Shown piece after piece: positions 1 through 11,141 of a stretch of 32,000 bases of DNA. The DNA is from Vulcanisaeta distributa DSM 14429 (GTDB taxonomy: Archaea > Thermoproteota > Thermoprotei > Thermoproteales > Thermocladiaceae). The translations under genes were made by a program, and so were the position numbers. Under the pieces are notes generated by a model. That model ran no database searches, had not been told where the DNA came from, and worked only from the letters and a program-made list of their open reading frames with translations. Each line of letters begins with the position of its first letter. Positions within the stretch are counted from its first letter, which is position 1. The stretch is taken from NCBI RefSeq assembly GCF_000148385.1, contig NC_014537.1:180001-212000 (forward strand), in the 5' to 3' direction.

Positions 1-57
1 TACACAATTAAGAGCTCCGATATAAAGACGCCTAGAGATAATACCAGCTCTACTTCA

Positions 58-1965
58 ATGTATTGTATAAGCACTAAAAATGGCTGTAGATATAGTAACT
101 ATTTCGTTAAGATTTTTGTAGACGGTGATCATAACAATTGGAATCCTGTAATACTTGGATACGAGATTAAAAACACGAGAATGCTCACGCTAGACATTAA
201 GGATTTAATAAGAAAAATAGCCTCATCAATAGTCAATATCGGTGAAGTAGAGCAAGGACAGGACTTAAAGCTTGATTATGAATATAAAACCCTCAGCACA
301 AATACTGCAGTAGTTAATCTACTAAGGCATTACCTATCTCATGACTTGGTAATAACGTATTACTTAACAAGGCTTGGCTTCACAAAGATCGATAAATACG
401 TTAATCTTTCAATACTAATAAATGATTTATTCCTCGGTAATAAACTAACCGTGAAGTTGGAAAAGGACGATGTTAAGGATCTTGCTAGTGATATTATTAA
501 TGATTTCATTAAATCATTTGATAAGGAAATAAGGCAGTCCTGGATATCATTATTACGATATGTATTATCCACGGTCAAAGGTGAGAGGTTAGAAACATAC
601 CGTATATTTCGTGAATGTAAGAATAATAAAAATACTCAAAGATACTGTATTCCTCACGAGGAAGCGGAGAATATTTGGAATAACATAGAAAAGCGAATAG
701 AAGGTATCTTAAAGAACTATAGTGAAATACCGAGTTACTTTGGGGTTAGGACTACTTATTGGTACGTTGGCGCTATTATTGATATCATAAAGCATACATT
801 AAGTCATCATTTAATAAGAACTATTAGCACAAGATATAGTGTTAACCCAAGTAAACTTATTGAGTATTATTACGAAATGAGAGGAGACGCTAAGGTTTCC
901 ATCATGGAAAGGGACTCTGGGGGTATTGGTGTATTAAATGTGGCCTTTGAGTCATGGGAAAAATCTGATAAGGAATTGAGGGAGAGACAAGTCGCTATTG
1001 AGGACCTCATACTATCCTTAGGTAAGTGCCTTGTCGGTACTCCTGAAGACTTACTGCACTTCGCGTTGCTGAATGATGATATTCGTGAAAGGTTATGTAG
1101 CGGTAAAGATAATGATGTAAGAGAGGGTATAAGGGAGATTATTAGGAGATTGAACATAATAGTTACCCCAGATGAGTTTGAGGAGACTATTAAGTTATGG
1201 AAATCAATATACGAGGAGGCTGATAGACTTACACGAATATTACGCAATGGGAATAATTACTTAGGTAATGAACCATGTAAATTATTAAGGGCTGTTCATG
1301 AGTTAAGACATGAACTGGAGAAGAAAATGAGGAGGTTTCCGGACATGGACGAATTGATGGCTTATATGCTCGAGAATATTGATGAATACTCCATACTTAA
1401 TGATTTGCTAACTAAGATGCTAGAGAGGGGGCTTAGGACCTCTGGCAGGTTTAGGGAATTTCTTCATGAGTTGTATGGAACGAATGATTATGTTAAGAGG
1501 TTCATAGGGGGTGTTAATTTTATCCTGAGAAGCAGAATACAGGACATCGATCATTTAAAGGAACTGGTGAGAAACAGTAATGATATCGTGTCAAAGTACG
1601 GCACTAAGGCGCTTGAGAAAATAACTGAATGTGTAGGTAAGCGAAGGGATGGTGATGATACGTGTAAAGCAGTTATACATGCATTGAAGCTTTTGGGTAG
1701 GGCACTCCGTGCGGTGTTAATGAGGATCTCGCTACTTAGTTGTAATGGTGCATGCGGTATGTGCTATGTGAATACTAAGTCATGCAGTAGGTTTGGCGCA
1801 CCCTTCATTCAGGCCAGGACACTTGATAGGAGGGTCCTTAAGGTACTTGCCTCCGAACTCGTTAGGCACATGAGCGATATCGTTAGGGATTACTACGGCG
1901 TTAATAAGGATGTTGATGTTATTGTGGAGCTTGGCGGTGAGCCCCGTACATTGAGGTGTGAATAA
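58..1965 (+). CDS. DUF1998 / MrfA-type zinc-ribbon domain protein (DISARM DrmB-like); may begin left of the window
   Basis: 635-codon ORF. 'HTLSHHL' (aa 246-252), then 'ERDSGGIG' (aa 284-291), then a C-terminal 4-Cys cluster C562-x3-C566-x2-C569-x6-C576 (nt 1741-1785) fit my recollection of the DUF1998 pattern. TAATG stop/start overlap with the next gene. ATATAAA at 20-26 lies about 35 nt upstream of the ATG. The frame has no stop back to nt 1, so an upstream start outside the window is possible. Confidence 0.55.
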   Translation: MYCISTKNGCRYSNYFVKIFVDGDHNNWNPVILGYEIKNTRMLTLDIKDLIRKIASSIVNIGEVEQGQDLKLDYEYKTLSTNTAVVNLLRHYLSHDLVITYYLTRLGFTKIDKYVNLSILINDLFLGNKLTVKLEKDDVKDLASDIINDFIKSFDKEIRQSWISLLRYVLSTVKGERLETYRIFRECKNNKNTQRYCIPHEEAENIWNNIEKRIEGILKNYSEIPSYFGVRTTYWYVGAIIDIIKHTLSHHLIRTISTRYSVNPSKLIEYYYEMRGDAKVSIMERDSGGIGVLNVAFESWEKSDKELRERQVAIEDLILSLGKCLVGTPEDLLHFALLNDDIRERLCSGKDNDVREGIREIIRRLNIIVTPDEFEETIKLWKSIYEEADRLTRILRNGNNYLGNEPCKLLRAVHELRHELEKKMRRFPDMDELMAYMLENIDEYSILNDLLTKMLERGLRTSGRFREFLHELYGTNDYVKRFIGGVNFILRSRIQDIDHLKELVRNSNDIVSKYGTKALEKITECVGKRRDGDDTCKAVIHALKLLGRALRAVLMRISLLSCNGACGMCYVNTKSCSRFGAPFIQARTLDRRVLKVLASELVRHMSDIVRDYYGVNKDVDVIVELGGEPRTLRCE

Positions 1966-2732
1966 TGCTATGGATATGTAAGGACTCTAGTAGAAGCCTT
2001 TCATCAATGTCCATCGAGGAGTTAATGAGGCGGTTTCTTCACGAATCATTTGGGAGTAAGTACATTTACATTATTTCTCCCTGGATCACGCCGTTTACGT
2101 TAAGTTCACGCTTTATTCATTATCCTTATGTATCATCTAATAACGTTATTGATGTACTTAAAGCACTGAGTAATTCGGGCGTTGGTGTTAAGGTCTTAAT
2201 GAGGTGTATCGATGATTCCATGGATATTCAACTCATAAGGGTATTGACTAACTTAGTTCGGGAGAGGCAGATTATACTCAACAACGAGGTTAAGTCATTC
2301 TTTAGAGATAGAATTGATGACTTCCTTAATCGTGCTAATGCAATGATAGACTTAGCTAGGGACCTAAAGGATGCGGTTAGATTTGACTTAGGCGCTGATG
2401 ATAAGCTTCTCACATGGTATAGACTTCATACTAAGCTTTACATTAATGACCACTCTGTTATTATGGGTTCAGCCAACTTTACGAGAGGGGGCATTCTCGA
2501 TGATGGTAATTGGGAGTGTGTGAGTCACTTCACTAAGGAGGAGAATACGGAGATCTACAACTACGCATTGAGAGTTGCCCAACATTACTTCAGTATTAGT
2601 AAAGGTTTTAGTGATTGTGAACGTAGGGTTGTGAGAATTGTCAATGAGTTCGGCGGCGTGGTTAACGAGCCAATTTACAGTATTGAGGACCTAATTGAGT
2701 ACCTGGAGCGGGTTAGGGATAGCCTATATTGA
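1965..2732 (+). CDS. PLD-superfamily (HKD) nuclease, DrmC/Nuc-like
   Basis: 255-codon ORF with a single HKD motif H155-T-K-LYIN-D-HSVIM-GSAN (nt 2427-2477), i.e. HxKxxxxD...GSxN. The ATG overlaps the upstream stop by 1 nt, suggesting translational coupling. Confidence 0.75.
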   Translation: MLWICKDSSRSLSSMSIEELMRRFLHESFGSKYIYIISPWITPFTLSSRFIHYPYVSSNNVIDVLKALSNSGVGVKVLMRCIDDSMDIQLIRVLTNLVRERQIILNNEVKSFFRDRIDDFLNRANAMIDLARDLKDAVRFDLGADDKLLTWYRLHTKLYINDHSVIMGSANFTRGGILDDGNWECVSHFTKEENTEIYNYALRVAQHYFSISKGFSDCERRVVRIVNEFGGVVNEPIYSIEDLIEYLERVRDSLY

Positions 2733-3464
2733 TCTTCGTCTTTGTTCTATCAGGCCGTACCTCAGGGCGTGCCTGTTTATCCAGACCGCTGTCATTGTTA
2801 GGGGTGTCAGCATTACTTTCCCCAGGGCTTGGTAGAGCGCCGTCAGTACTAATTGGTTGTTTGGTATTGTTCCGTAGAATGCCAGTGGCACGAATACGAG
2901 GGAGTCAATGAGCATGCTCACGGGGTCTGAGTAGCCAACCCTCCTAAGCACGCCACCCCTTAACCTACTCACTAGGTAAACGTCGTAGGTTTGCTATGTC
3001 GTGAATGCCACCACTGAGGCTATTACAACCCTAATATTCACTGTCATGACCTCAGCAAATGCACCCTGCATTTTCCAGATTGGGGCTGGTGGGAATTCAA
3101 TTACGAGGTAATTAAGCAATGCTATTAGGAGTTGTGTTATTATGGCTATCCTGACCACGGCATAGCCATAGCCCCTGCCGTACCTGAGGGTTACGTAGTC
3201 GAGTATAGCCACTGAGGCTGAGTATGTGATTAACCCCATTGGGAACATTATTGGTCCAATGGCCCCAATCTTACTCGCCAGGTATTGACTAGTGGTTAGT
3301 AATAGCATGTATAGCATGAAGGATATTGGGAGTAGGTAATCATGCCTACCCAGCCTATACAATGCCCAGAGTATTGATGATGTGACGAAGTAAGTCACAA
3401 CAGAGCTCAGGTAGAACAGGCCCAACGCCGTTAATACCGCGCCCATGGTGATCACACCAACCAC
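2724..3464 (-). pseudogene. yhhQ: YhhQ/DUF165-family queuosine-precursor (preQ0/preQ1) transporter interrupted by one in-frame TAG
   Basis: Track ORFs 2994-3464 (156 aa) and 2724-2972 (82 aa) are in the same frame (3464-2972=492). They are separated only by TAG at 2994-2996 plus 7 sense codons. The joined reading '...TTSQYLASKIG...ASVVAFTT*QTYDVYLVSRLRGG..RRVGYSDPVSMLIDSLVFVPLAFYG' is collinear with the YhhQ pattern as I recall it (A-S-x-x-A-Y-x-x-G-Q-x-x-D-V...R-L-R...S-x-x-x-D-x-x-x-F-x-x-x-A-F). The hydrophobic profile is polytopic. Confidence 0.7.
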
Positions 3465-5299
3465 TGATCGAGGGTTGACTTGGCGAGTGACTCCACAATT
3501 TCACGCAACTCCCTAATCTTCCTAAGCCTGGCGCTTAGACTTCCGGCGATGATAATCGCGGCCCTAACACCATTGACCTTACCCACGGCGCTCTTCGGCA
3601 GTATTAAGACCGCGTTCTCCTCATGCACGAGCCTATTAAGCACGCCCTCAATGGCGTGGGCATACTCACGGGGTAACGCAACAATTACTAAGTCGTAGCC
3701 ATTACCAACAACGCGCATTAGCTTGTCCTCGACCCCCATCCTCCTCGACCAATTCCTAATCCACTCCTTATCCCTGCCCTTGAGGGATGCCTCATACGGT
3801 ATTATTGGGTAATCCTCCCTAATGAGTCCATACCTCGCACTGATTATGTATAGGTCAACCACCTTACCAAGCCTCCTCAACTCATCTGCCAGGTTCTTGA
3901 TAGCCCTGAAGGAGCCCCCATACATCTCGCCGGCAGGCTTTATGAAGCCCCTGAGTACCTCCCTATACCTATCCTCAAGCTCAATGTCGAAGGAGGGCAT
4001 CCTCAATGAGTGCTTCATTAATGCTTTCTGGACCTCATTAATATTGACGGTCTTACTCGAGGTGCAGTTCGTGATTATTAAAACCCTCCTCGCACCCCTC
4101 AGCTTAACCGCCAAGTCACTGCTCAATGCGGTGGCGCCTTCACCGTTGGTGCTGACCTCAAGTTTGGGTATTGTGAATTTCGTGATTAACTCATCACGAT
4201 TAAGCAGCTTGCTAAATACGTACACGTTGTGGAATCCCCTCCTCCTATTCCTGTTGTTTCCCCTGAATATAACTACGTCAATACCTATTGACCTACAGAC
4301 ACCACAGTCACACTTTTTCCAGGGCATGTCCCTAAGGAGCGCGGCGTAGTACGGTAGGTAGTGCGTATGGCCGATGCGAGCTACGTAACTCCTCAGGGCA
4401 CTCATTACCTCGTCATACGTTATCCTGCCCTCATCATAGAGCCTGAGCTTCCTCATTAATTCATCATCCCTCTCAACAATCCTAATAGCCGTGTACGCCT
4501 TACCATCGGTGGTTAGGTAATTGCCTAACTCCCTGGTCCAGGCAATCCTCAGCACAGTGGAGCTGTCAAAGGAGACCTCACCAACGTAATTGCTCAACTT
4601 CCTCAGCTTGGGTATTACCGAGAGCCTTGTTATTCCCAAGAAGTGAACCTTCTCGACATCACCCAGCTTACTAACGACCTCCCTGATCCTGGTCACCAAC
4701 TCATCTATGAACTTCGTATCCCTCCTGGCGAGGCCCCCAATGGCGAAGTGCCTATAACCAACCTTATACAGTCTCTCCAGGTTATTTACGTAATCGTCGA
4801 TTGTCAAACCCTGCACCGAGGCCATGAGCCTAAAGCCGTAATTACCGCCCCTCCAGGCCTCCAGCATCTTAATGGCGTTGTTTATCGTGATCTCAATCCT
4901 CCTCTGTGAGTCGCCGAAGAGGGGTATGTGGTCGAGGGTTACTCCATAGTCTACGCCGAGCGCCTCGTAGTACTGTAGCACCTCACTTATCGTGTACGGC
5001 GGGACATCCATGTACCTATACTGCCACGCACCGCAATCACCAATTACCTGCATGCTACTGGGTAGCCTCATAAAGCCACGCACACCACCGGCACTCCTTA
5101 TCCCGTTTAGCTTTGTTTTGGTAATCACGGATATCGAGACCAGGACACCATCAATGACATTGCCGACCAACTCCCAAAGTCTTGCACCGTTCACGTACTT
5201 ATCCCTCTTAAAGCCCTCCGAGGGTTTCTCGCTTATGAAGTCGTAACCTGAATCGACAATGTCATCCCAATCAGGCAATATGAACTTTAGCCTCCTCAT
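3452..5299 (-). CDS. TGT-fold transglycosylase, DpdA-like, fused to a C-terminal YaaA/DUF328-like domain
   Basis: 615 codons. TGT hallmarks are retained: 'GVDYGVTLDHIP' (D123), 'FAIGGLA', 'VHFLGI', 'EVSFDSS' (D245), and the Zn site C330-x-C332-x2-C335...H357-N (nt 4229-4312). The N-terminus 'FILPDWDDIVDSGYDF' is unlike tRNA ArcTGT, and no PUA-like tail is recognisable. Residues about 404-615 carry 'VLIITNCTSSKT', 'IISARYGLIREDYPIIPYEASL' and 'LVIVALPREY'. Confidence 0.7.
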   Translation of the reverse strand: MRRLKFILPDWDDIVDSGYDFISEKPSEGFKRDKYVNGARLWELVGNVIDGVLVSISVITKTKLNGIRSAGGVRGFMRLPSSMQVIGDCGAWQYRYMDVPPYTISEVLQYYEALGVDYGVTLDHIPLFGDSQRRIEITINNAIKMLEAWRGGNYGFRLMASVQGLTIDDYVNNLERLYKVGYRHFAIGGLARRDTKFIDELVTRIREVVSKLGDVEKVHFLGITRLSVIPKLRKLSNYVGEVSFDSSTVLRIAWTRELGNYLTTDGKAYTAIRIVERDDELMRKLRLYDEGRITYDEVMSALRSYVARIGHTHYLPYYAALLRDMPWKKCDCGVCRSIGIDVVIFRGNNRNRRRGFHNVYVFSKLLNRDELITKFTIPKLEVSTNGEGATALSSDLAVKLRGARRVLIITNCTSSKTVNINEVQKALMKHSLRMPSFDIELEDRYREVLRGFIKPAGEMYGGSFRAIKNLADELRRLGKVVDLYIISARYGLIREDYPIIPYEASLKGRDKEWIRNWSRRMGVEDKLMRVVGNGYDLVIVALPREYAHAIEGVLNRLVHEENAVLILPKSAVGKVNGVRAAIIIAGSLSARLRKIRELREIVESLAKSTLDQWLV

Positions 5300-5507: not shown

Positions 5508-6164
5508 ATGAGGCCCTTCACGCTGAGGGGTATTTACGAATTCCTAAACCTGCTTAGGTCCGGTGGTTCCATAGGCGGTGATAGGAGGTTGAGGGAATTC
5601 CTCAGGGCATCCCTCGACCTGGGCTTCGTGAGTGAGGTGAATGGTACATACGTAATCACCGAGAGGGGGTCACGCTTCATGAGTGCGATGGAGGTCGGCG
5701 ATGCCACCACGATCCACGCACTGCTTATGGATAGCCTTGAGAGTTATAGGAGGGTTTACGAATTAGTGAGCAGGGGCGTTACTAAGCCGAGTGAATTGAT
5801 TAGGTTGACAGGTTATAATGCCGTGGTCATTGATATAGTGATGAGGCTCATAAGGGAGGTTGAGGCATTGAGCCCGGGCTCGCCACTTAGTAAGGACTTA
5901 TACGCCAGGTTTGAGGAGGTATTACTGAGTAAGTATAGGGAGTTGAGTAGGAGGAGATGGAGCAGATACGTACCAATCACGGAGTTAGTTAGGGAGGTTA
6001 GGAATGAACTCAATATACCCAATAGGGTCGTTAATGCATTCCTTGAGGAGTTCATCAGAAGGATGGGTAGTAAGGTCGTACTCACCGGAGCACCTGGTAA
6101 GGGTGGTAGGGGGTCAATGGAGATCAATGGTAGGAGGTTCACGTACATAATGATCGGTGATTAG
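5508..6164 (+). CDS. Winged-helix (wHTH)-like protein of unknown function
   Basis: 218-codon ORF. 'LGFVSEVNGTYVITERGSRF' looks like a recognition-helix-plus-wing segment, and a second helical repeat follows. The stop lies 2 nt before the next ATG. Confidence 0.45.
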   Translation: MRPFTLRGIYEFLNLLRSGGSIGGDRRLREFLRASLDLGFVSEVNGTYVITERGSRFMSAMEVGDATTIHALLMDSLESYRRVYELVSRGVTKPSELIRLTGYNAVVIDIVMRLIREVEALSPGSPLSKDLYARFEEVLLSKYRELSRRRWSRYVPITELVREVRNELNIPNRVVNAFLEEFIRRMGSKVVLTGAPGKGGRGSMEINGRRFTYIMIGD

Positions 6165-6166
6165 TC

Positions 6167-7117
6167 ATGAGGACCCTACTACCGATACCGTCAATTGAGG
6201 ATGCCGAGCACATATTTGACCCTCACGGCATTACCGAAGAACTCACGAAATACGTAAACCTAGTGGCCAGCGGCCCCTCGGGTGCAGGCGTGATAATTGG
6301 CAACTACGGCTTTGGGAAGACCCACGTAATGCTCCACTTAATGAGCATTGTCAGGAAGAGGTTCACTAATTCAGTAATTATTTATGTAAACACGCCGGGA
6401 CAAAGCATACTCAATGTCTATAGGGCGCTAATGGTGGGCGTGCTCGATGGTGGGCTCCTCGACAGGGCTGTGAATGGGTTGGGCACGCCCATTAGGGACT
6501 TGGTGCTTTTGTTGAGGGAGGGTGGTGATGAGGCTAGGTACGCGAGGCAGTGGTTGCTCGGTGACCCAGCACCGCAGGGGTTTAGGGCTAAGTATGGGCT
6601 TCCATCAACTAGGGTTAATGATGAACTGGCGGTTAAGTTCATGGTGGAGGTGATAAATGCCCTCACCGGCGTTGGTTACGGCCCCGTACTCATAATGCTC
6701 GATGAGTTTGAGGACGTGATAACCATTGGGCCCACCAGGAAGCTCCAGTACCTGAGTCAATTGAGGGTTTTCATCGATAACCTACCTAGTAAGACCTTAT
6801 TCATGGTGTCATCAACACCCGCCGGTTGGGATGAGATTGTCAATACTTACCCAGCCCTCGCCAGGAGGCTATCATCATTCATAATTTACCTAAGGCCCTT
6901 CAACATTGACGAGACCAGGCAATTCATAAATGAATTCACGAGGTGGAGGGGAATTAAGATACCGTTAAGTGATGAGTTGGTTAGGACGATATACGAATTC
7001 ACCGAGGGTAACCCAGGGGAGGTGGTTAAGGCCGTTAACTTAATACTCATGGAATTTGGCGGTGTGGGGTCTCTGGACATTGCGAGGGTTAAGGAGTTGT
7101 TATCGAGGCATGTCTAG
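6167..7117 (+). CDS. P-loop NTPase (AAA/ORC-Cdc6-like or DUF2791-like)
   Basis: 316 codons. Walker A 'GNYGFGKT' (aa 45-52, nt 6299-6322), Walker B 'LIMLDEFED' (aa 175-183), and a C-terminal 'FTEGNPGEVVKAV' lid-like helix. Only 2-nt gaps separate it from both neighbours. Confidence 0.75.
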   Translation: MRTLLPIPSIEDAEHIFDPHGITEELTKYVNLVASGPSGAGVIIGNYGFGKTHVMLHLMSIVRKRFTNSVIIYVNTPGQSILNVYRALMVGVLDGGLLDRAVNGLGTPIRDLVLLLREGGDEARYARQWLLGDPAPQGFRAKYGLPSTRVNDELAVKFMVEVINALTGVGYGPVLIMLDEFEDVITIGPTRKLQYLSQLRVFIDNLPSKTLFMVSSTPAGWDEIVNTYPALARRLSSFIIYLRPFNIDETRQFINEFTRWRGIKIPLSDELVRTIYEFTEGNPGEVVKAVNLILMEFGGVGSLDIARVKELLSRHV

Positions 7118-7119
7118 GC

Positions 7120-8034
7120 ATGCCGAGGCTATACATAACCTGGTACGCAGAGCCTGAGGACCCACACTACTGGAGGTTCTTTAGGGTCGGTGGTATCACG
7201 GTCTCACTAAAGTCCTTACTTAAAATGCCTAGGTGGAAATTCACGAGGGTTTTAAGCCAGGGGTTCAGGAGGTTCTTTAATTACGATGGGCCGCTACTCG
7301 TGGACTCCATGCTCACTGAGGTCCATGCACCACGAAGTAACATGCATGGTGATATACCCCAATCACACGTATTATACCTGCAGTACCTACTTGGCTCCGA
7401 CATACTGATTCAGAGGGATTACCCACTGATCCACGTTGACGACCCAGGACTAAGGACTAAACTCTTCAATAGGAACTTGGCAATGGCTGAGGCAGCGCTT
7501 AGGTTTGGTGACTTGGTTGGTAAGGACGTGATGCTCGTGGTTCACGGCTGGAACTTAAACACATACATCAAATGCGCCGAGTACTATAGGGACTTAGGCG
7601 TGAAGTACGTCGGTATTGGATCCCTGGTGCCCCATAGGAGCAACACAAAGTTCTTAATCAATGTGGTTAAGGGTGTTCGCGAAGTCCTCGGTAGTCACGT
7701 CCACATGCACCTCTTCGGCATTAGTACGATAGAGTTAATAACGCAGTTGGGTAACTACGTCGATAGCGTTGACGTGAGTACACCCGCCATTGCCGGTGCT
7801 AAGAAGGAGTTAATTGTTTGGGATGGCAGTAGGTTAATTAGGGTTAAAACAACCACCGTGACCGGGATAAAGATAATGAGCGAGTTAATCGAGAGGTCAA
7901 GTGATGAGTTGGAGAGAAAACTCTTACTCGGCATACTCAATGCCAGGAGTTTGAGGGATAAGAACCTTCATACGATGATTTACAATGCGTACATAATTAC
8001 GAAGTACTGGAATTCAGTCATTGATAAACAATAG
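7120..8034 (+). CDS. Second TGT-fold (DpdA-like) paralog, short, lacking the CxCxxC zinc site
   Basis: 304 codons. 'GSDILIQRDYP' (D100), 'YVGIGSLVPHRSNTKF', 'HMHLFGIS' and 'YVDSVDVSTPAIAG' (D218) parallel the motifs of the 615-aa protein. No Cys triad occurs at the equivalent C-terminal position. Confidence 0.6.
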   Translation: MPRLYITWYAEPEDPHYWRFFRVGGITVSLKSLLKMPRWKFTRVLSQGFRRFFNYDGPLLVDSMLTEVHAPRSNMHGDIPQSHVLYLQYLLGSDILIQRDYPLIHVDDPGLRTKLFNRNLAMAEAALRFGDLVGKDVMLVVHGWNLNTYIKCAEYYRDLGVKYVGIGSLVPHRSNTKFLINVVKGVREVLGSHVHMHLFGISTIELITQLGNYVDSVDVSTPAIAGAKKELIVWDGSRLIRVKTTTVTGIKIMSELIERSSDELERKLLLGILNARSLRDKNLHTMIYNAYIITKYWNSVIDKQ

Positions 8035-8079: not shown

Positions 8080-8481
8080 ATGGGGGGAATTGAGGATAAG
8101 GTAGAGAAGTGCCTGCAAGGTCTCTGCGGTGAGTTCATTATCAGGAGGGTTAATTGCAAGGACCTGGGCGACATTGACCATGGGGTCTACATAGTGATTT
8201 CTGGAAGTGATTACGTAATTGGCTACTCAAGGGATTTGAAACGTAGGTTGAGGATGTACTGCCTAGGTCAACTTGACTTAAGGGGTGTGATCAGGCTATT
8301 AATGGGCAGGCTGGACAACCTGCCGCCGGGCATGTTGGGCAAGGGCGACGTGATTGGTCGGCGTAGCAACCTCTCGAAGTTAATCAATGATATGATGAGT
8401 AATGCCCAGGTATTGACGGTTAAGTGCGCTTCCATGGTTGATAAGGAGCTTTACATAAAGCTTAGGGACTGCCTCAAGTGA
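8080..8481 (+). CDS. Small GIY-YIG-like nuclease-domain candidate
   Basis: 133 codons. 'GVYIVISGSDYVIGYSRDLKRRLRMY' resembles the UvrC-type GIY...YIG...R core ('GVY...VIYVGKAKDLKKRLSSY' as I recall it). ATTATAA at 8043-8049 suggests its own promoter. Confidence 0.4.
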   Translation: MGGIEDKVEKCLQGLCGEFIIRRVNCKDLGDIDHGVYIVISGSDYVIGYSRDLKRRLRMYCLGQLDLRGVIRLLMGRLDNLPPGMLGKGDVIGRRSNLSKLINDMMSNAQVLTVKCASMVDKELYIKLRDCLK

Positions 8482-8492
8482 GTGTTGGGGAC

Positions 8493-8912
8493 CTACGGCC
8501 CCCTCACCTCGCATGGTAATCTCCAAAGCGCCTTTACGTAATCCTCACCGAACTCCTCATCAGGCGCCCCAGCGCCTAGGTAAGGCTGCTTACCGCATAG
8601 CATGCCGATCACCGAGGCGAGGAACCTCCAACCACTCCACCAATAATCATGTGGGTCCGGGTCCGTTATCATGCCGGAATCCTCAATTAACATGTCCAGC
8701 GCATCATTAACAATGTTAATTCTGTCATCACTAACACCGAGCTTTCTCAATAACTCATCAACAACCTCCTTATACCTACTGAGTGGTTCCTCAAAGACCT
8801 TCCTAAGCTCATCCTCACTGAGACTTGAGGTCTCATACTCACTAAACAACCCATCAATCTTCTCCTCAAGCTTAGAAATCTTCTCGCACAAGTCCTTAAC
8901 CTCAGACGGCAT
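8493..8912 (-). CDS. Hypothetical acidic, helical protein
   Basis: 139-codon ORF with an ATG start. An AT-rich TATA-like tract (8934-8948) lies about 25-35 nt upstream on the minus strand. No family recognised. Confidence 0.5.
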   Translation of the reverse strand: MPSEVKDLCEKISKLEEKIDGLFSEYETSSLSEDELRKVFEEPLSRYKEVVDELLRKLGVSDDRINIVNDALDMLIEDSGMITDPDPHDYWWSGWRFLASVIGMLCGKQPYLGAGAPDEEFGEDYVKALWRLPCEVRGP

Positions 8913-9182
8913 AGATAAACCCAGACTAGAAGCTATATAAATTTATTTATCTAATCAACCCTCCTCCTTAAGTAATGATGTAGCCGCCACTCAATGACTA
9001 ATAAGGCAAGAAATGATGAATGCCTAATATATAGAGCTCACTCTCCCTCTCAAGATAATATGCCATGGCTGTCGATTTAATGCGAGCTCCTCGGCTTCGT
9101 TGATTGCCATGCTTATTAGCTTATTTATTGTGTGGTTGAGGTCGTAGTTGTTGATTAACTTAAGCTCATTGAGGGTTTATGT

Positions 9183-9653
9183 CTAAGTGGGTAAGGCATA
9201 TGCTATTTTTGTTAAATCGTTTTGGTCTGTTACCAGTACTGTCCAGTATCCTGGGTTGACTTTATCCAGCAGTATTGTGTCTCCCTGTATCGGTATCTTT
9301 ACTACTCCTGTTGAGTTTCCTATGACTACCTCGTAGCTTAATGGTATGAAGTTTTGTCCATTAATCATTGTTCCAGCATTTTGTTGGTTGAATGAGTTGA
9401 TTTCATTAACTGCTTCACTCAGCACTGTGCTGGATACGTTGTATGTTCCTAAGTCGTGTAAATTGCCTTGTTGATCGTAGTAGAATAGTTCGTACTGCCC
9501 ACTCCCCAAAGGTCTCAAGAATGCGTATGGGGCGTTAACGGTTAGGTAAGCCACCGACGGCTTCGAGGCGAATGGATGCATCAGTAGGATCAAGGCAATG
9601 GCTATAACAACAACGGCAACCACAACACCAACAACCAAAACCTTACCAGGCAC
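9183..9653 (-). CDS. Small membrane-anchored/secreted protein (start re-assigned)
   Basis: The track ORF runs to 9908, but its first 85 codons translate an A/C-rich low-complexity tract and overlap thiC. The in-frame GTG at 9653 gives 'MPGKVLVVGVVVAVVVIAIALILL...', a classic N-terminal signal-anchor, followed by a non-repetitive domain. Confidence 0.5.
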   Translation of the reverse strand: MPGKVLVVGVVVAVVVIAIALILLMHPFASKPSVAYLTVNAPYAFLRPLGSGQYELFYYDQQGNLHDLGTYNVSSTVLSEAVNEINSFNQQNAGTMINGQNFIPLSYEVVIGNSTGVVKIPIQGDTILLDKVNPGYWTVLVTDQNDLTKIAYALPT

Positions 9654-9896
9654 AAAACAACAAACCAAAAAACAAATTAAAACATTACCCCAAAGCCCAG
9701 GCAATGAAAAGGCAACACCCAATAAATAATCACAGTAATTAAAAAGATTGTGAAAAAATTGAGGTTCAGGAAGAAACACAACGCATACACACAAACAACG
9801 AAACAAACATAGAACAAAATTCTCCCAAACCCAGGCGCAACGAAACAATGTTCGATTAATAATTACAACATTAGGGTTGGGCTTAAGGTTAAGGCC

Positions 9897-11141
9897 GTGG
9901 CTAAGCATGAGGGTGTTGAGGAGGTTAAATTGGCCAGGAGAATAGCCAGTGGTAAGGTGATACTCATTAGAAACGTTAAGTTGCCCGATAAGGTTAGCGC
10001 AGTTGGTCTTGGGTTAACCACTAAGGTTAACGTTAACATAGGCACGTCGAGCGAGGTCGTGAACCTGGAAGCGGAGCTTGAGAAGGTTAAGATCGCTAAT
10101 AAGTGGGGCGATACATTGATGGACCTATCAACGGGCGGTGACCTTGACGAGATACGTAGGGCGATAATCAGGGAGTCGAAGTTGCCCGTCGGTACTGTAC
10201 CGACATATCAAGCGTTCATAGACTCATTTAAGAAAAAGGGCGGTGGGGCCTACTTCACCGAGGATGAACTCTTCGATGTCATCGAGAGGCACCTAAGGGA
10301 TGGGGTTGCCTTCATGACGATACACGCGGCCGTGACCAGGGAATTGGCAATTAAGGCCTTGAGGAGTGACAGGGTCATACCGATCGTCTCCAGGGGTGGT
10401 GATATGCTCATTGGGTGGATGCTCCATAACGATGCCGAGAACCCACTCTACGCTAGGTGGGATTACGTGCTCGAGCTCTTCAGGGAGTACGATGCCACCA
10501 TCTCAATAGGCGATGCCCTACGCCCAGGCGCCACGGCGGATAGTCACGACGAGTTTCACGTGGCTGAGTTGATCGAGGCGGCGAGACTGGTGAAGAGGAC
10601 AAGGAAGGCTGGGGTTCAGGTGATGGTTGAGGGGCCTGGGCACGTCCCATTAAATGAAATTATATGGGATGTTAAGTTAATGAAGAAGTTAACCGATGGT
10701 GCGCCGTACTACGTCCTAGGTCCACTACCTACTGACGTGGCTGCCCCATACGACCACATCGCTGGCGCTATTGGCGCGGCGATCGCTGGAGCCGCGGGCG
10801 CGGACTTACTATGTTATATAACGCCCGCTGAGCACCTGGGTTTGCCAACACCGAGGCAGGTTGAGGAGGGTGTGATAGCCTTCAAAATAGCGGCTCACGT
10901 GGCCGACACAATAAAGCTTGGCAGGAGGGCCAGGGCCTGGGATGACGAGGTTAGTAGGTTCAGGGGCAAGCTGATGTGGAGGGAGATGATAAATAGATTG
11001 ATAGATCCGGAAAAGGCCTGGGCCGTGTATACACAGTACGGGGAACCCAAGGTTAGAGGTTGCACAATGTGCGGTGGTTACTGCCCAATGCTCATGGTGA
11101 TGCAACAGATCAAGAAGGTTAAGGGTGAAGTCAATGGGTGA
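9897..11141 (+). CDS. thiC: Phosphomethylpyrimidine synthase ThiC
   Basis: 414 codons. 'GTVPTYQA', 'SRGG', 'DALRPG', 'EGPGHVP', '[17 protein letters not shown]' and the C-terminal radical-SAM-type cluster '[10 protein letters not shown]' are all present. Confidence 0.9.

Follow-up and report, generated by a model that had tools for sequence, protein, structure and literature searches.

A DpdA–DUF6884 fusion protein in a Dpd-type island of the archaeon Vulcanisaeta distributa

Overall architecture and the DpdA domain

The window analysed here is a 32,000-nucleotide stretch of the Vulcanisaeta distributa DSM 14429 genome (assembly GCF_000148385.1, contig NC_014537.1, positions 180,001 to 212,000), and the DpdA–DUF6884 (DpdC-like) fusion gene under study lies on its reverse strand at 3452–5299. 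The gene is an uninterrupted open reading frame (ORF) that starts with ATG and encodes a 615-residue protein, for which NCBI lists a 'hypothetical protein' of the same species with 100% identity. The protein comprises an N-terminal DpdA domain (residues 1–366; 4202–5299) and a C-terminal DUF6884 or DpdC-like domain (residues 403–615; 3455–4093), joined by a linker (residues 367–402; 4094–4201) with a single helix at residues 387–402. An AlphaFold2 model built on an alignment of 76 homologues has a predicted local distance difference test score (pLDDT) of 92.7 and a predicted template modelling score (pTM) of 0.79, the pLDDT falling to 64 in the 381–390 block of the linker. Judged from sequence comparison, the similarity of both domains to the DpdA and DpdC families is far beyond chance. 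A DpdA–DpdC fusion, raised as a possibility in a preliminary description of this DNA, is supported at the level of homology, from which its activity is deduced. The protein is probably a two-domain DNA-modification enzyme residing in an archaeal Dpd-type restriction–modification island.

The N-terminal domain is predicted to fold as a TIM-barrel DNA-guanine transglycosylase with a zinc subdomain. It scores 275.8 bits (E=5.5e-82) against the NCBIfam DpdA equivalog NF041059, above the cutoff of 200, and 253.7 bits (E=6.7e-76) against the PADLOC DpdA model. A phmmer search of all PDB sequences gave as sole significant match 7UI4 (E=9.4e-51, spanning residues 1–364), the DpdA of Salmonella enterica serovar Montevideo (SmDpdA), which is also the top Foldseek match of the model (E=3.2e-32, template modelling (TM) score 0.79, root-mean-square deviation 2.6 Å). 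The two proteins align end to end with about 32% identity and share the fold, the catalytic Asp pair, the base-recognising Asp and the CxCxxC...H zinc site. In the phmmer alignment, D88, W92, D123, Q163, L221 and D245 of the fusion protein pair with D95, F99, D130, H181, L236 and D256 of SmDpdA, the roles of the latter being taken from their published description (PMC10164549). Two of these positions carry conservative replacements, F99 to W92 and H181 to Q163, the second giving a Gln as in tRNA-guanine transglycosylases (TGTs). The fusion protein further differs from SmDpdA by a 250-residue C-terminal extension and by having no DpdB partner gene near it. In the 76 full-length homologues the active-site positions are invariant or nearly so, and the zinc ligands C330, C332, C335 and H357 are invariant; the zinc site, C330-x-C332-x-x-C335...H357, occupies residues 330–358 (4226–4312), with the same motif in the aligned 7UI4.

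The N-terminal motifs quoted in the preliminary description are all present, namely FILPDWDDIVDSGYDF (residues 6–21), GVDYGVTLDHIP (which holds D123) and VSFDSS (D245), as is the zinc site, which reads CDCGVC...FHN. The description had taken GVDYGVTLDHIP and VSFDSS for the contexts of both catalytic Asp residues. This is correct for D245, the counterpart of the catalytic D256 of SmDpdA, but not for D123, which corresponds to the base-recognising D130; the other catalytic Asp is the conserved D88, in the motif GDCGAW, equivalent to SmDpdA D95.

A TGT fold with intact catalytic and zinc sites could also belong to a tRNA-modifying archaeal TGT (arcTGT) or an ArcS paralogue whose defence-type neighbours are coincidental, as might be read from the UniRef name 'Queuine/other tRNA-ribosyltransferase' and from weak matches to Pfam TGT (23.3 bits) and to the archaeal tRNA TGT model TIGR00432 (31.7 bits). 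However, the latter score is far under the tRNA-TGT cutoff of 350, whereas the DpdA cutoff is exceeded. ArcS models gave no match to the protein in the NCBIfam scan, and PUA, C1 and C2 domains are absent from both the Pfam scan and the AlphaFold2 model. In Foldseek E value DpdA leads every TGT by about 20 orders of magnitude, bacterial TGTs giving ~1e-9 and arcTGT (1IQ8) 2.6e-7, and similar neighbourhoods with DpdK- and DpdJ-like genes recur in distant lineages. We consider a tRNA enzyme highly improbable, and the arcTGT and ArcS assignments were rejected on scores and domain content. By score and fold the domain groups with neither, in agreement with the earlier view that the lack of a PUA-like tail speaks against a tRNA enzyme. 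These comparisons place the N-terminal half in the DpdA family and not among the tRNA TGTs.

The C-terminal DUF6884 domain

The C-terminal domain is predicted to adopt a YaaA-superfamily α/β fold. It clears the Pfam DUF6884 (PF21818) cutoff of 30 bits marginally, scoring 30.5 bits as part of the full protein and 33.1 bits by itself, and residues 403–559 match the PADLOC DpdC profiles with E=1.9e-9 in the full protein and 1.2e-10 for the domain alone (PDLC02815). According to the Pfam curators, DUF6884 is a distant relative of YaaA/PF03883 and is characterized by CxxxK and LSAxxG motifs (PMC11701544). Both signatures are found here: C412-T-S-S-K416 (reverse strand, 4052–4066), a putative active site, and the (L/I)SAxxG motif S487-A-R-Y-G491, preceded by I (reverse strand, 3827–3841). 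They are invariant in the 76 fusion homologues and present in canonical DpdC. In an alignment of archaeal C-terminal domains, Bacillota N-terminal domains and one canonical Enterobacter DpdC, 11 columns are invariant (C412, K416, A456, Y460, G462, S487, A488, G491, Y502, D536 and Y546, in full-length numbering). All 25 aligned members examined match DUF6884 (best E=8.7e-21) and 14 of the 25 match PF03883 (best E=1.8e-6), the YaaA/DUF328 family, for which the Vulcanisaeta domain itself gave no Pfam match. DpdC has been assigned to DUF328/PF03883 (PMC5699537, PMC12839542), and in a genome-mining preprint dpdC genes match DUF6884 (10.1101/2025.02.24.639861).

Modelled alone, the domain reaches a pLDDT of 94.9 and a pTM of 0.90. 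The only solved structure matched by Foldseek at E<=1e-3 is that of Escherichia coli YaaA (5CAJ; E=2.2e-5, probability 1.0), although the superposition is globally poor, with a TM-score of 0.35–0.40. YaaA was recovered by the fold search alone; a hidden Markov model of the C-terminal domain, searched against PDB sequences, did not find it, and the NCBIfam YaaA model reaches 12.8 bits (E=0.064) on the Vulcanisaeta protein, far under its cutoff of 204. The corresponding stretch of YaaA, which we take to read LISPAKT, presumably lacks the Cys of CxxxK. As far as these comparisons go, the tie to YaaA is at the superfamily level only. In the viral structure library BFVD, phage proteins fill the first seven places, four of them named DUF6884 and one YaaA. 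Searched by itself against an index of 5.8 billion proteins, the C-terminal domain gave just one match, which was uninformative.

Canonical DpdC, represented by the protein of Enterobacter cloacae plasmid pPOL9A (our contig L006, 10986–11927), scores 470 bits against the PADLOC DpdC model; its gene lies directly upstream of dpdA–dpdB and is annotated 'hypothetical protein'. NCBIfam gave no DpdC-type match even for this protein, and the PADLOC DpdC models were therefore used instead. The annotated start of the Enterobacter gene lies about 30 codons too far downstream, which removes the CxxxK motif; the upstream extension reads LITTCTNGKH and restores it. The Vulcanisaeta domain and bacterial DpdC share the genetic association with DpdA and, in the N-terminal catalytic core, the motifs CxxxK, A..Y.G, (L/I)SAxxG, PY, D and Y. 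They differ in that the archaeal domain forms part of a fusion with DpdA and does not stand alone, is shorter (about 213 residues versus about 310), is 23% identical to the Enterobacter protein and belongs to a Thermoproteota clade with an insertion of ~33 residues after CxxxK. In the alignment with Enterobacter DpdC no counterpart of the C-terminal ~140 residues of DpdC was found, these being absent or unrelated in the fusion.

The preliminary description had singled out VLIITNCTSSKT (which holds C412 and K416), IISARYGLIREDYPIIPYEASL (S487–G491 and Y502) and VIVALPREY (Y546) as marks of a YaaA/DUF328-like domain. All three are present, and this placement is borne out by the DUF6884 match above cutoff and by 5CAJ as best fold match. 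Its further suggestion that DpdC belongs to the same family agrees with the PADLOC DpdC match and the shared CxxxK and SAxxG motifs.

Distribution and genomic neighbourhood of the fusion

A protein database search returned more than 100 full-length homologues of 570–690 residues from Thermoproteota, Bathyarchaeia, Nitrososphaeria, Aenigmatarchaeota and Bacillota, several of which are named 'tRNA-guanine transglycosylase DpdA' by PGAP, NCBI's pipeline for annotating prokaryotic genomes. When a single genome was scanned for each species, relatives were encoded at 513 loci; among the best 80 of these loci, fusions occur in the archaea Vulcanisaeta, Caldivirga, Thermoproteus, Methanoregula and Methanosarcina, and in cyanobacteria, Bacillota, Chloroflexota, Myxococcota and Deinococcota. 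The fusion is common in sequence databases and hence not new there. The expectation that a covalent fusion of the two activities would be new thus holds for the architecture as far as the literature searched is concerned, where no description of a DpdA–DpdC or DpdA–DUF6884 fusion was found (an earlier mention being possible), but not for public sequence data, in which such proteins abound under the name DpdA given by PGAP.

Archaeal proteins have the order DpdA–DUF6884, and the reverse order is seen in Paenibacillus tyrfis, Tumebacillus sp. BK434 and plasmid1 of Scytonema sp. NIES-4073. These bacterial proteins share with the Vulcanisaeta protein both domains and the invariant residues, several being named DpdA by NCBI, and the islands that encode them include helicases and PLD nucleases, as well as a second TGT paralogue in Paenibacillus. 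They differ in carrying DUF6884 at the N-terminus and, in Scytonema, in having a DGQHR/DndB-like (DpdB-like) protein adjoining the fused gene. The range of partners of the C-terminal domain was assessed on the best 150 of 6,715 cluster representatives, 146 of which were newly returned. Of these 146, the majority (114) are stand-alone proteins of at most 300 residues and 25 contain a DpdA domain, while just one protein longer than 500 residues is devoid of it. DpdA thus appears to be effectively the sole recurrent fusion partner of this domain, in both orders, and this recurrence provides strong genomic evidence that the two act jointly, and that the DUF6884 domains of this subfamily would act on the product of DpdA.

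Haloarchaeal DpdA–DUF6884 homologues reach about 968 residues (Halobaculum marinum plasmid, L007:12010–14916), and their tblastn matches fall into three pieces, pointing to large insertions inside the DpdA domain. Near the H. marinum fusion gene there is also a gene for a LAGLIDADG homing endonuclease. A stand-alone 233-residue DUF6884 domain of the long Thermoproteota type (L015:222–923; 228 bits to the profile) adjoins a gene for the Cas protein Csa5, with no DpdA found within that short contig. A stand-alone DpdA relative (P0040) has no DUF6884 neighbour on its 8-kb contig, and for a stand-alone DUF6884 relative (P0122) the contigs are not long enough to reveal a DpdA.

In the window, the fusion gene is followed on the reverse strand by a gene (2724–3464) for a YhhQ/Vut_1-type transporter of queuosine precursor, here 7-cyano-7-deazaguanine (preQ0), identified by Pfam Vut_1 and TIGR00697 matches on both halves. 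The first 13 nucleotides of the transporter gene overlap the end of the fusion gene, with which it is predicted to be co-transcribed. Convergent with these two genes are two forward-strand genes. The first (1965–2732) encodes a DpdK-like nuclease of the PLD family, matched by Pfam PLDc_2 (39.1 bits), by PADLOC DpdK (E=2.4e-10) and, below the cutoff of 100, by NCBIfam DpdK (33.1 bits). The second (1–1965; ORF 58–1965, 635 residues) encodes the C-terminal part of a 927-residue protein that runs off the window and has a weak match to Pfam MZB (E=0.021). Just upstream of the 927-residue protein, outside the window, lies a gene for a 975-residue DEAD helicase that matches PADLOC DpdJ with 135.8 bits, and the MZB-like region of the 927-residue protein suggests that it and the helicase may together equal one larger DpdJ-type helicase, such as the 1,847-residue DEAD/Helicase_C/MZB protein encoded in a Bathyarchaeota metagenome-assembled genome (MAG; L003). 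BLASTP of the 635-residue ORF against this helicase and a 465-residue neighbour gave nothing significant. Two uncharacterized proteins of 423 and at least 443 residues are also encoded upstream, outside the window, and the gene order of this region (L009:3618–10580) is conserved in L011 and L012 (Culexmicrobium MAG). The G+C content of window positions 1–1000 is 0.34, whereas the remainder of the window lies at roughly 0.41–0.54; the difference may reflect horizontal acquisition of that part of the defence island.

On the other side of the fusion gene, and divergent from it, is a set of three forward-strand genes. They encode a 218-residue protein (5508–6164) with a weak winged helix-turn-helix (wHTH) match (Pfam HTH_45, E=0.0057) and weak similarity to its positional counterpart in the Bathyarchaeota MAG, a BrxD-like or ATPase_2 P-loop ATPase (6167–7117; Pfam BrxC_BrxD 42.2 bits, ATPase_2 38 bits, PADLOC BrxD E=2.1e-9), and a second TGT-fold paralogue of 304 residues, here named TGT2 (7120–8034; Pfam TGT 33.9 bits, DpdA model 47.5 bits). 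The alignment shows that TGT2 retains the Asp columns. The CxCxxC..H zinc motif is missing from TGT2 of Vulcanisaeta, Culexmicrobium and Paenibacillus and kept in the Bathyarchaeota and haloarchaeal proteins. The three-gene set is kept beside the fusions of the Culexmicrobium MAG, the Bathyarchaeota MAG and the Halobaculum plasmid. In the last two, the fusion also adjoins the preQ0 genes FolE/FolE2–QueD–QueC–QueE (FolE2 in Bathyarchaeota), so that the Halobaculum plasmid brings together preQ0 genes, the 968-residue DpdA–DUF6884 protein and the TGT2 and ATPase genes. Beyond the island, three small ORFs precede ThiC (window 8080–9908), encoding a 133-residue protein with a weak GIY-YIG match (E=0.052), a 139-residue protein with no significant match and a 241-residue Cys-rich hydrophobic protein. 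From about 9.9 kb on, the window carries housekeeping genes for ThiC, LysW-type lysine/arginine biosynthesis and carbamoyl-phosphate synthase.

Among the island ORFs scanned with Pfam, NCBIfam and PADLOC no DpdB/DndB match was found, and the precomputed Pfam matches for neighbours of the archaeal relatives include no ParB-like or DndB family; DpdD, DpdE, DpdF, DpdG, DpdH and DpdI were not identified in the Vulcanisaeta island. This raises the alternative that the C-terminal domain is a DNA-binding or base-flipping module that targets or activates DpdA in place of DpdB, the modification then being limited to 2'-deoxy-preQ0 (dPreQ0). YaaA, its closest solved fold, is described as a DNA-binding protein, DUF6884 itself is predicted to bind DNA and flip bases (PMC11701544), and the domain is without the C-terminal ~140 residues of canonical DpdC. 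On the other hand, C412 and K416 are invariant in the 76 fusions and shared with canonical DpdC, which suggests chemistry rather than binding alone. Moreover, the fusion on the Scytonema plasmid stands beside a DpdB-like protein and is therefore not simply a substitute for DpdB. A purely DNA-binding role seems unlikely to us.

Proposed activity and implications

Several observations weigh against a two-domain modifying enzyme. The match to DpdC is confined to profile positions ~4–170 of ~312, with a modest 39 bits, and the Pfam DUF6884 cutoff is barely passed; on account of this partial coverage and of the missing PF03883 match, the domain is named here DpdC-like and not DpdC. DUF6884 is a large family, its 6,715 cluster representatives need not all share the chemistry of DpdC, and for one member, YfjM, the proposed targets are abasic or RNA lesions (PMC11701544). 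The literature searched yielded no published support for a catalytic role of C412 or for any DpdC mechanism. The island has no recognizable DpdB, and its YhhQ-like transporter gene is broken by an in-frame TAG at 2994–2996, between the residues AFTT and QTYD. Either the gene is a pseudogene or the TAG is a sequencing error; in independent Logan assemblies, too, two genes are called at this locus.

The Salmonella system, in which DpdA and DpdB insert preQ0 into DNA and DpdC independently turns the preQ0-DNA into ADG-DNA (PMC10164549), suggests how the fusion protein might act. As a first step, expected from its family membership, the DpdA domain would exchange guanine in double-stranded DNA for preQ0, using the Asp pair D88/D245 for catalysis, D123 and Q163 for base recognition, and W92 and L221 for stacking; preQ0 would be supplied by the host's archaeosine pathway or be imported. 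The tethered DpdC-like domain would then bind the same DNA, flip out the new base and convert its nitrile, most likely into the carboxamide (dADG) made by bacterial DpdC. By analogy with QueF and nitrilases, we hypothesize that the Cys of CxxxK, C412, forms a thioimidate by attacking the nitrile, aided by K416 together with D536 or the invariant tyrosines. As judged from gene context, the modified DNA would finally serve as a 'self' mark for a restriction module comprising the DpdJ-like helicase split into two genes, the DpdK-like PLD nuclease and several uncharacterized proteins. DpdB is essential for DpdA activity in Salmonella. It might be speculated that the wHTH protein, BrxD-like ATPase and TGT2 set replaces the ATP-dependent help that DpdB gives to DpdA.

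The nature of the product deserves separate consideration, as the C-terminal domain could act on DNA-bound preQ0 and yield a base other than ADG, such as the amidine deoxyarchaeosine (dG+) or, after complete hydrolysis of the nitrilase type, the carboxylate dCDG. The invariant Cys fits thioimidate chemistry. In QueF-L and nitrilase chemistry, a thioimidate can go on to an amidine, when resolved by ammonia as in QueF-L, to an amide or to an acid. The archaeal domains diverge from canonical DpdC, to which the Vulcanisaeta domain is 23% identical, and in phage and virus DNA one finds dG+, dCDG and other derivatives (PMC6884629, PMC10516641). However, the only characterized relative, DpdC, yields ADG (PMC10164549), and the island shows neither an amidotransferase nor a partner that would channel ammonia, so that we assign a different product a low probability and retain dADG as the expected one.

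A more far-reaching interpretation, which we regard as a real but minor possibility, is that the island represents a distinct, DpdB-independent class of 7-deazaguanine DNA modification, widespread in archaea, in which the fusion works with TGT2 and the BrxD-like ATPase. The fusion and TGT2 could form a heteromeric transglycosylase driven by a different ATPase, for which the eukaryotic heteromeric transglycosylase QTRT1/QTRT2 offers a model, and the Cys-dependent C-terminal domain might make a DNA base other than dADG.

In the papers found, the cellular biochemistry of 7-deazaguanine in DNA is confined to the Salmonella DpdA, DpdB and DpdC proteins, and none shows such a modification in a cellular archaeal genome. 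The Vulcanisaeta locus suggests a compact archaeal variant without DpdB, in which one polypeptide would both insert the base and tailor it. It makes testable the activity of DpdA without DpdB, the role of the invariant Cys and Lys in DpdC and DUF6884 proteins, and the presence of dPreQ0 or dADG in the DNA of a hyperthermophile. The recurrence of the fusion is also of help in annotating several hundred proteins whose present label is 'hypothetical' or just 'DpdA'. If the DpdB-independent class is real, cellular archaeal genomes, those of hyperthermophiles included, would carry 7-deazaguanines in their DNA.

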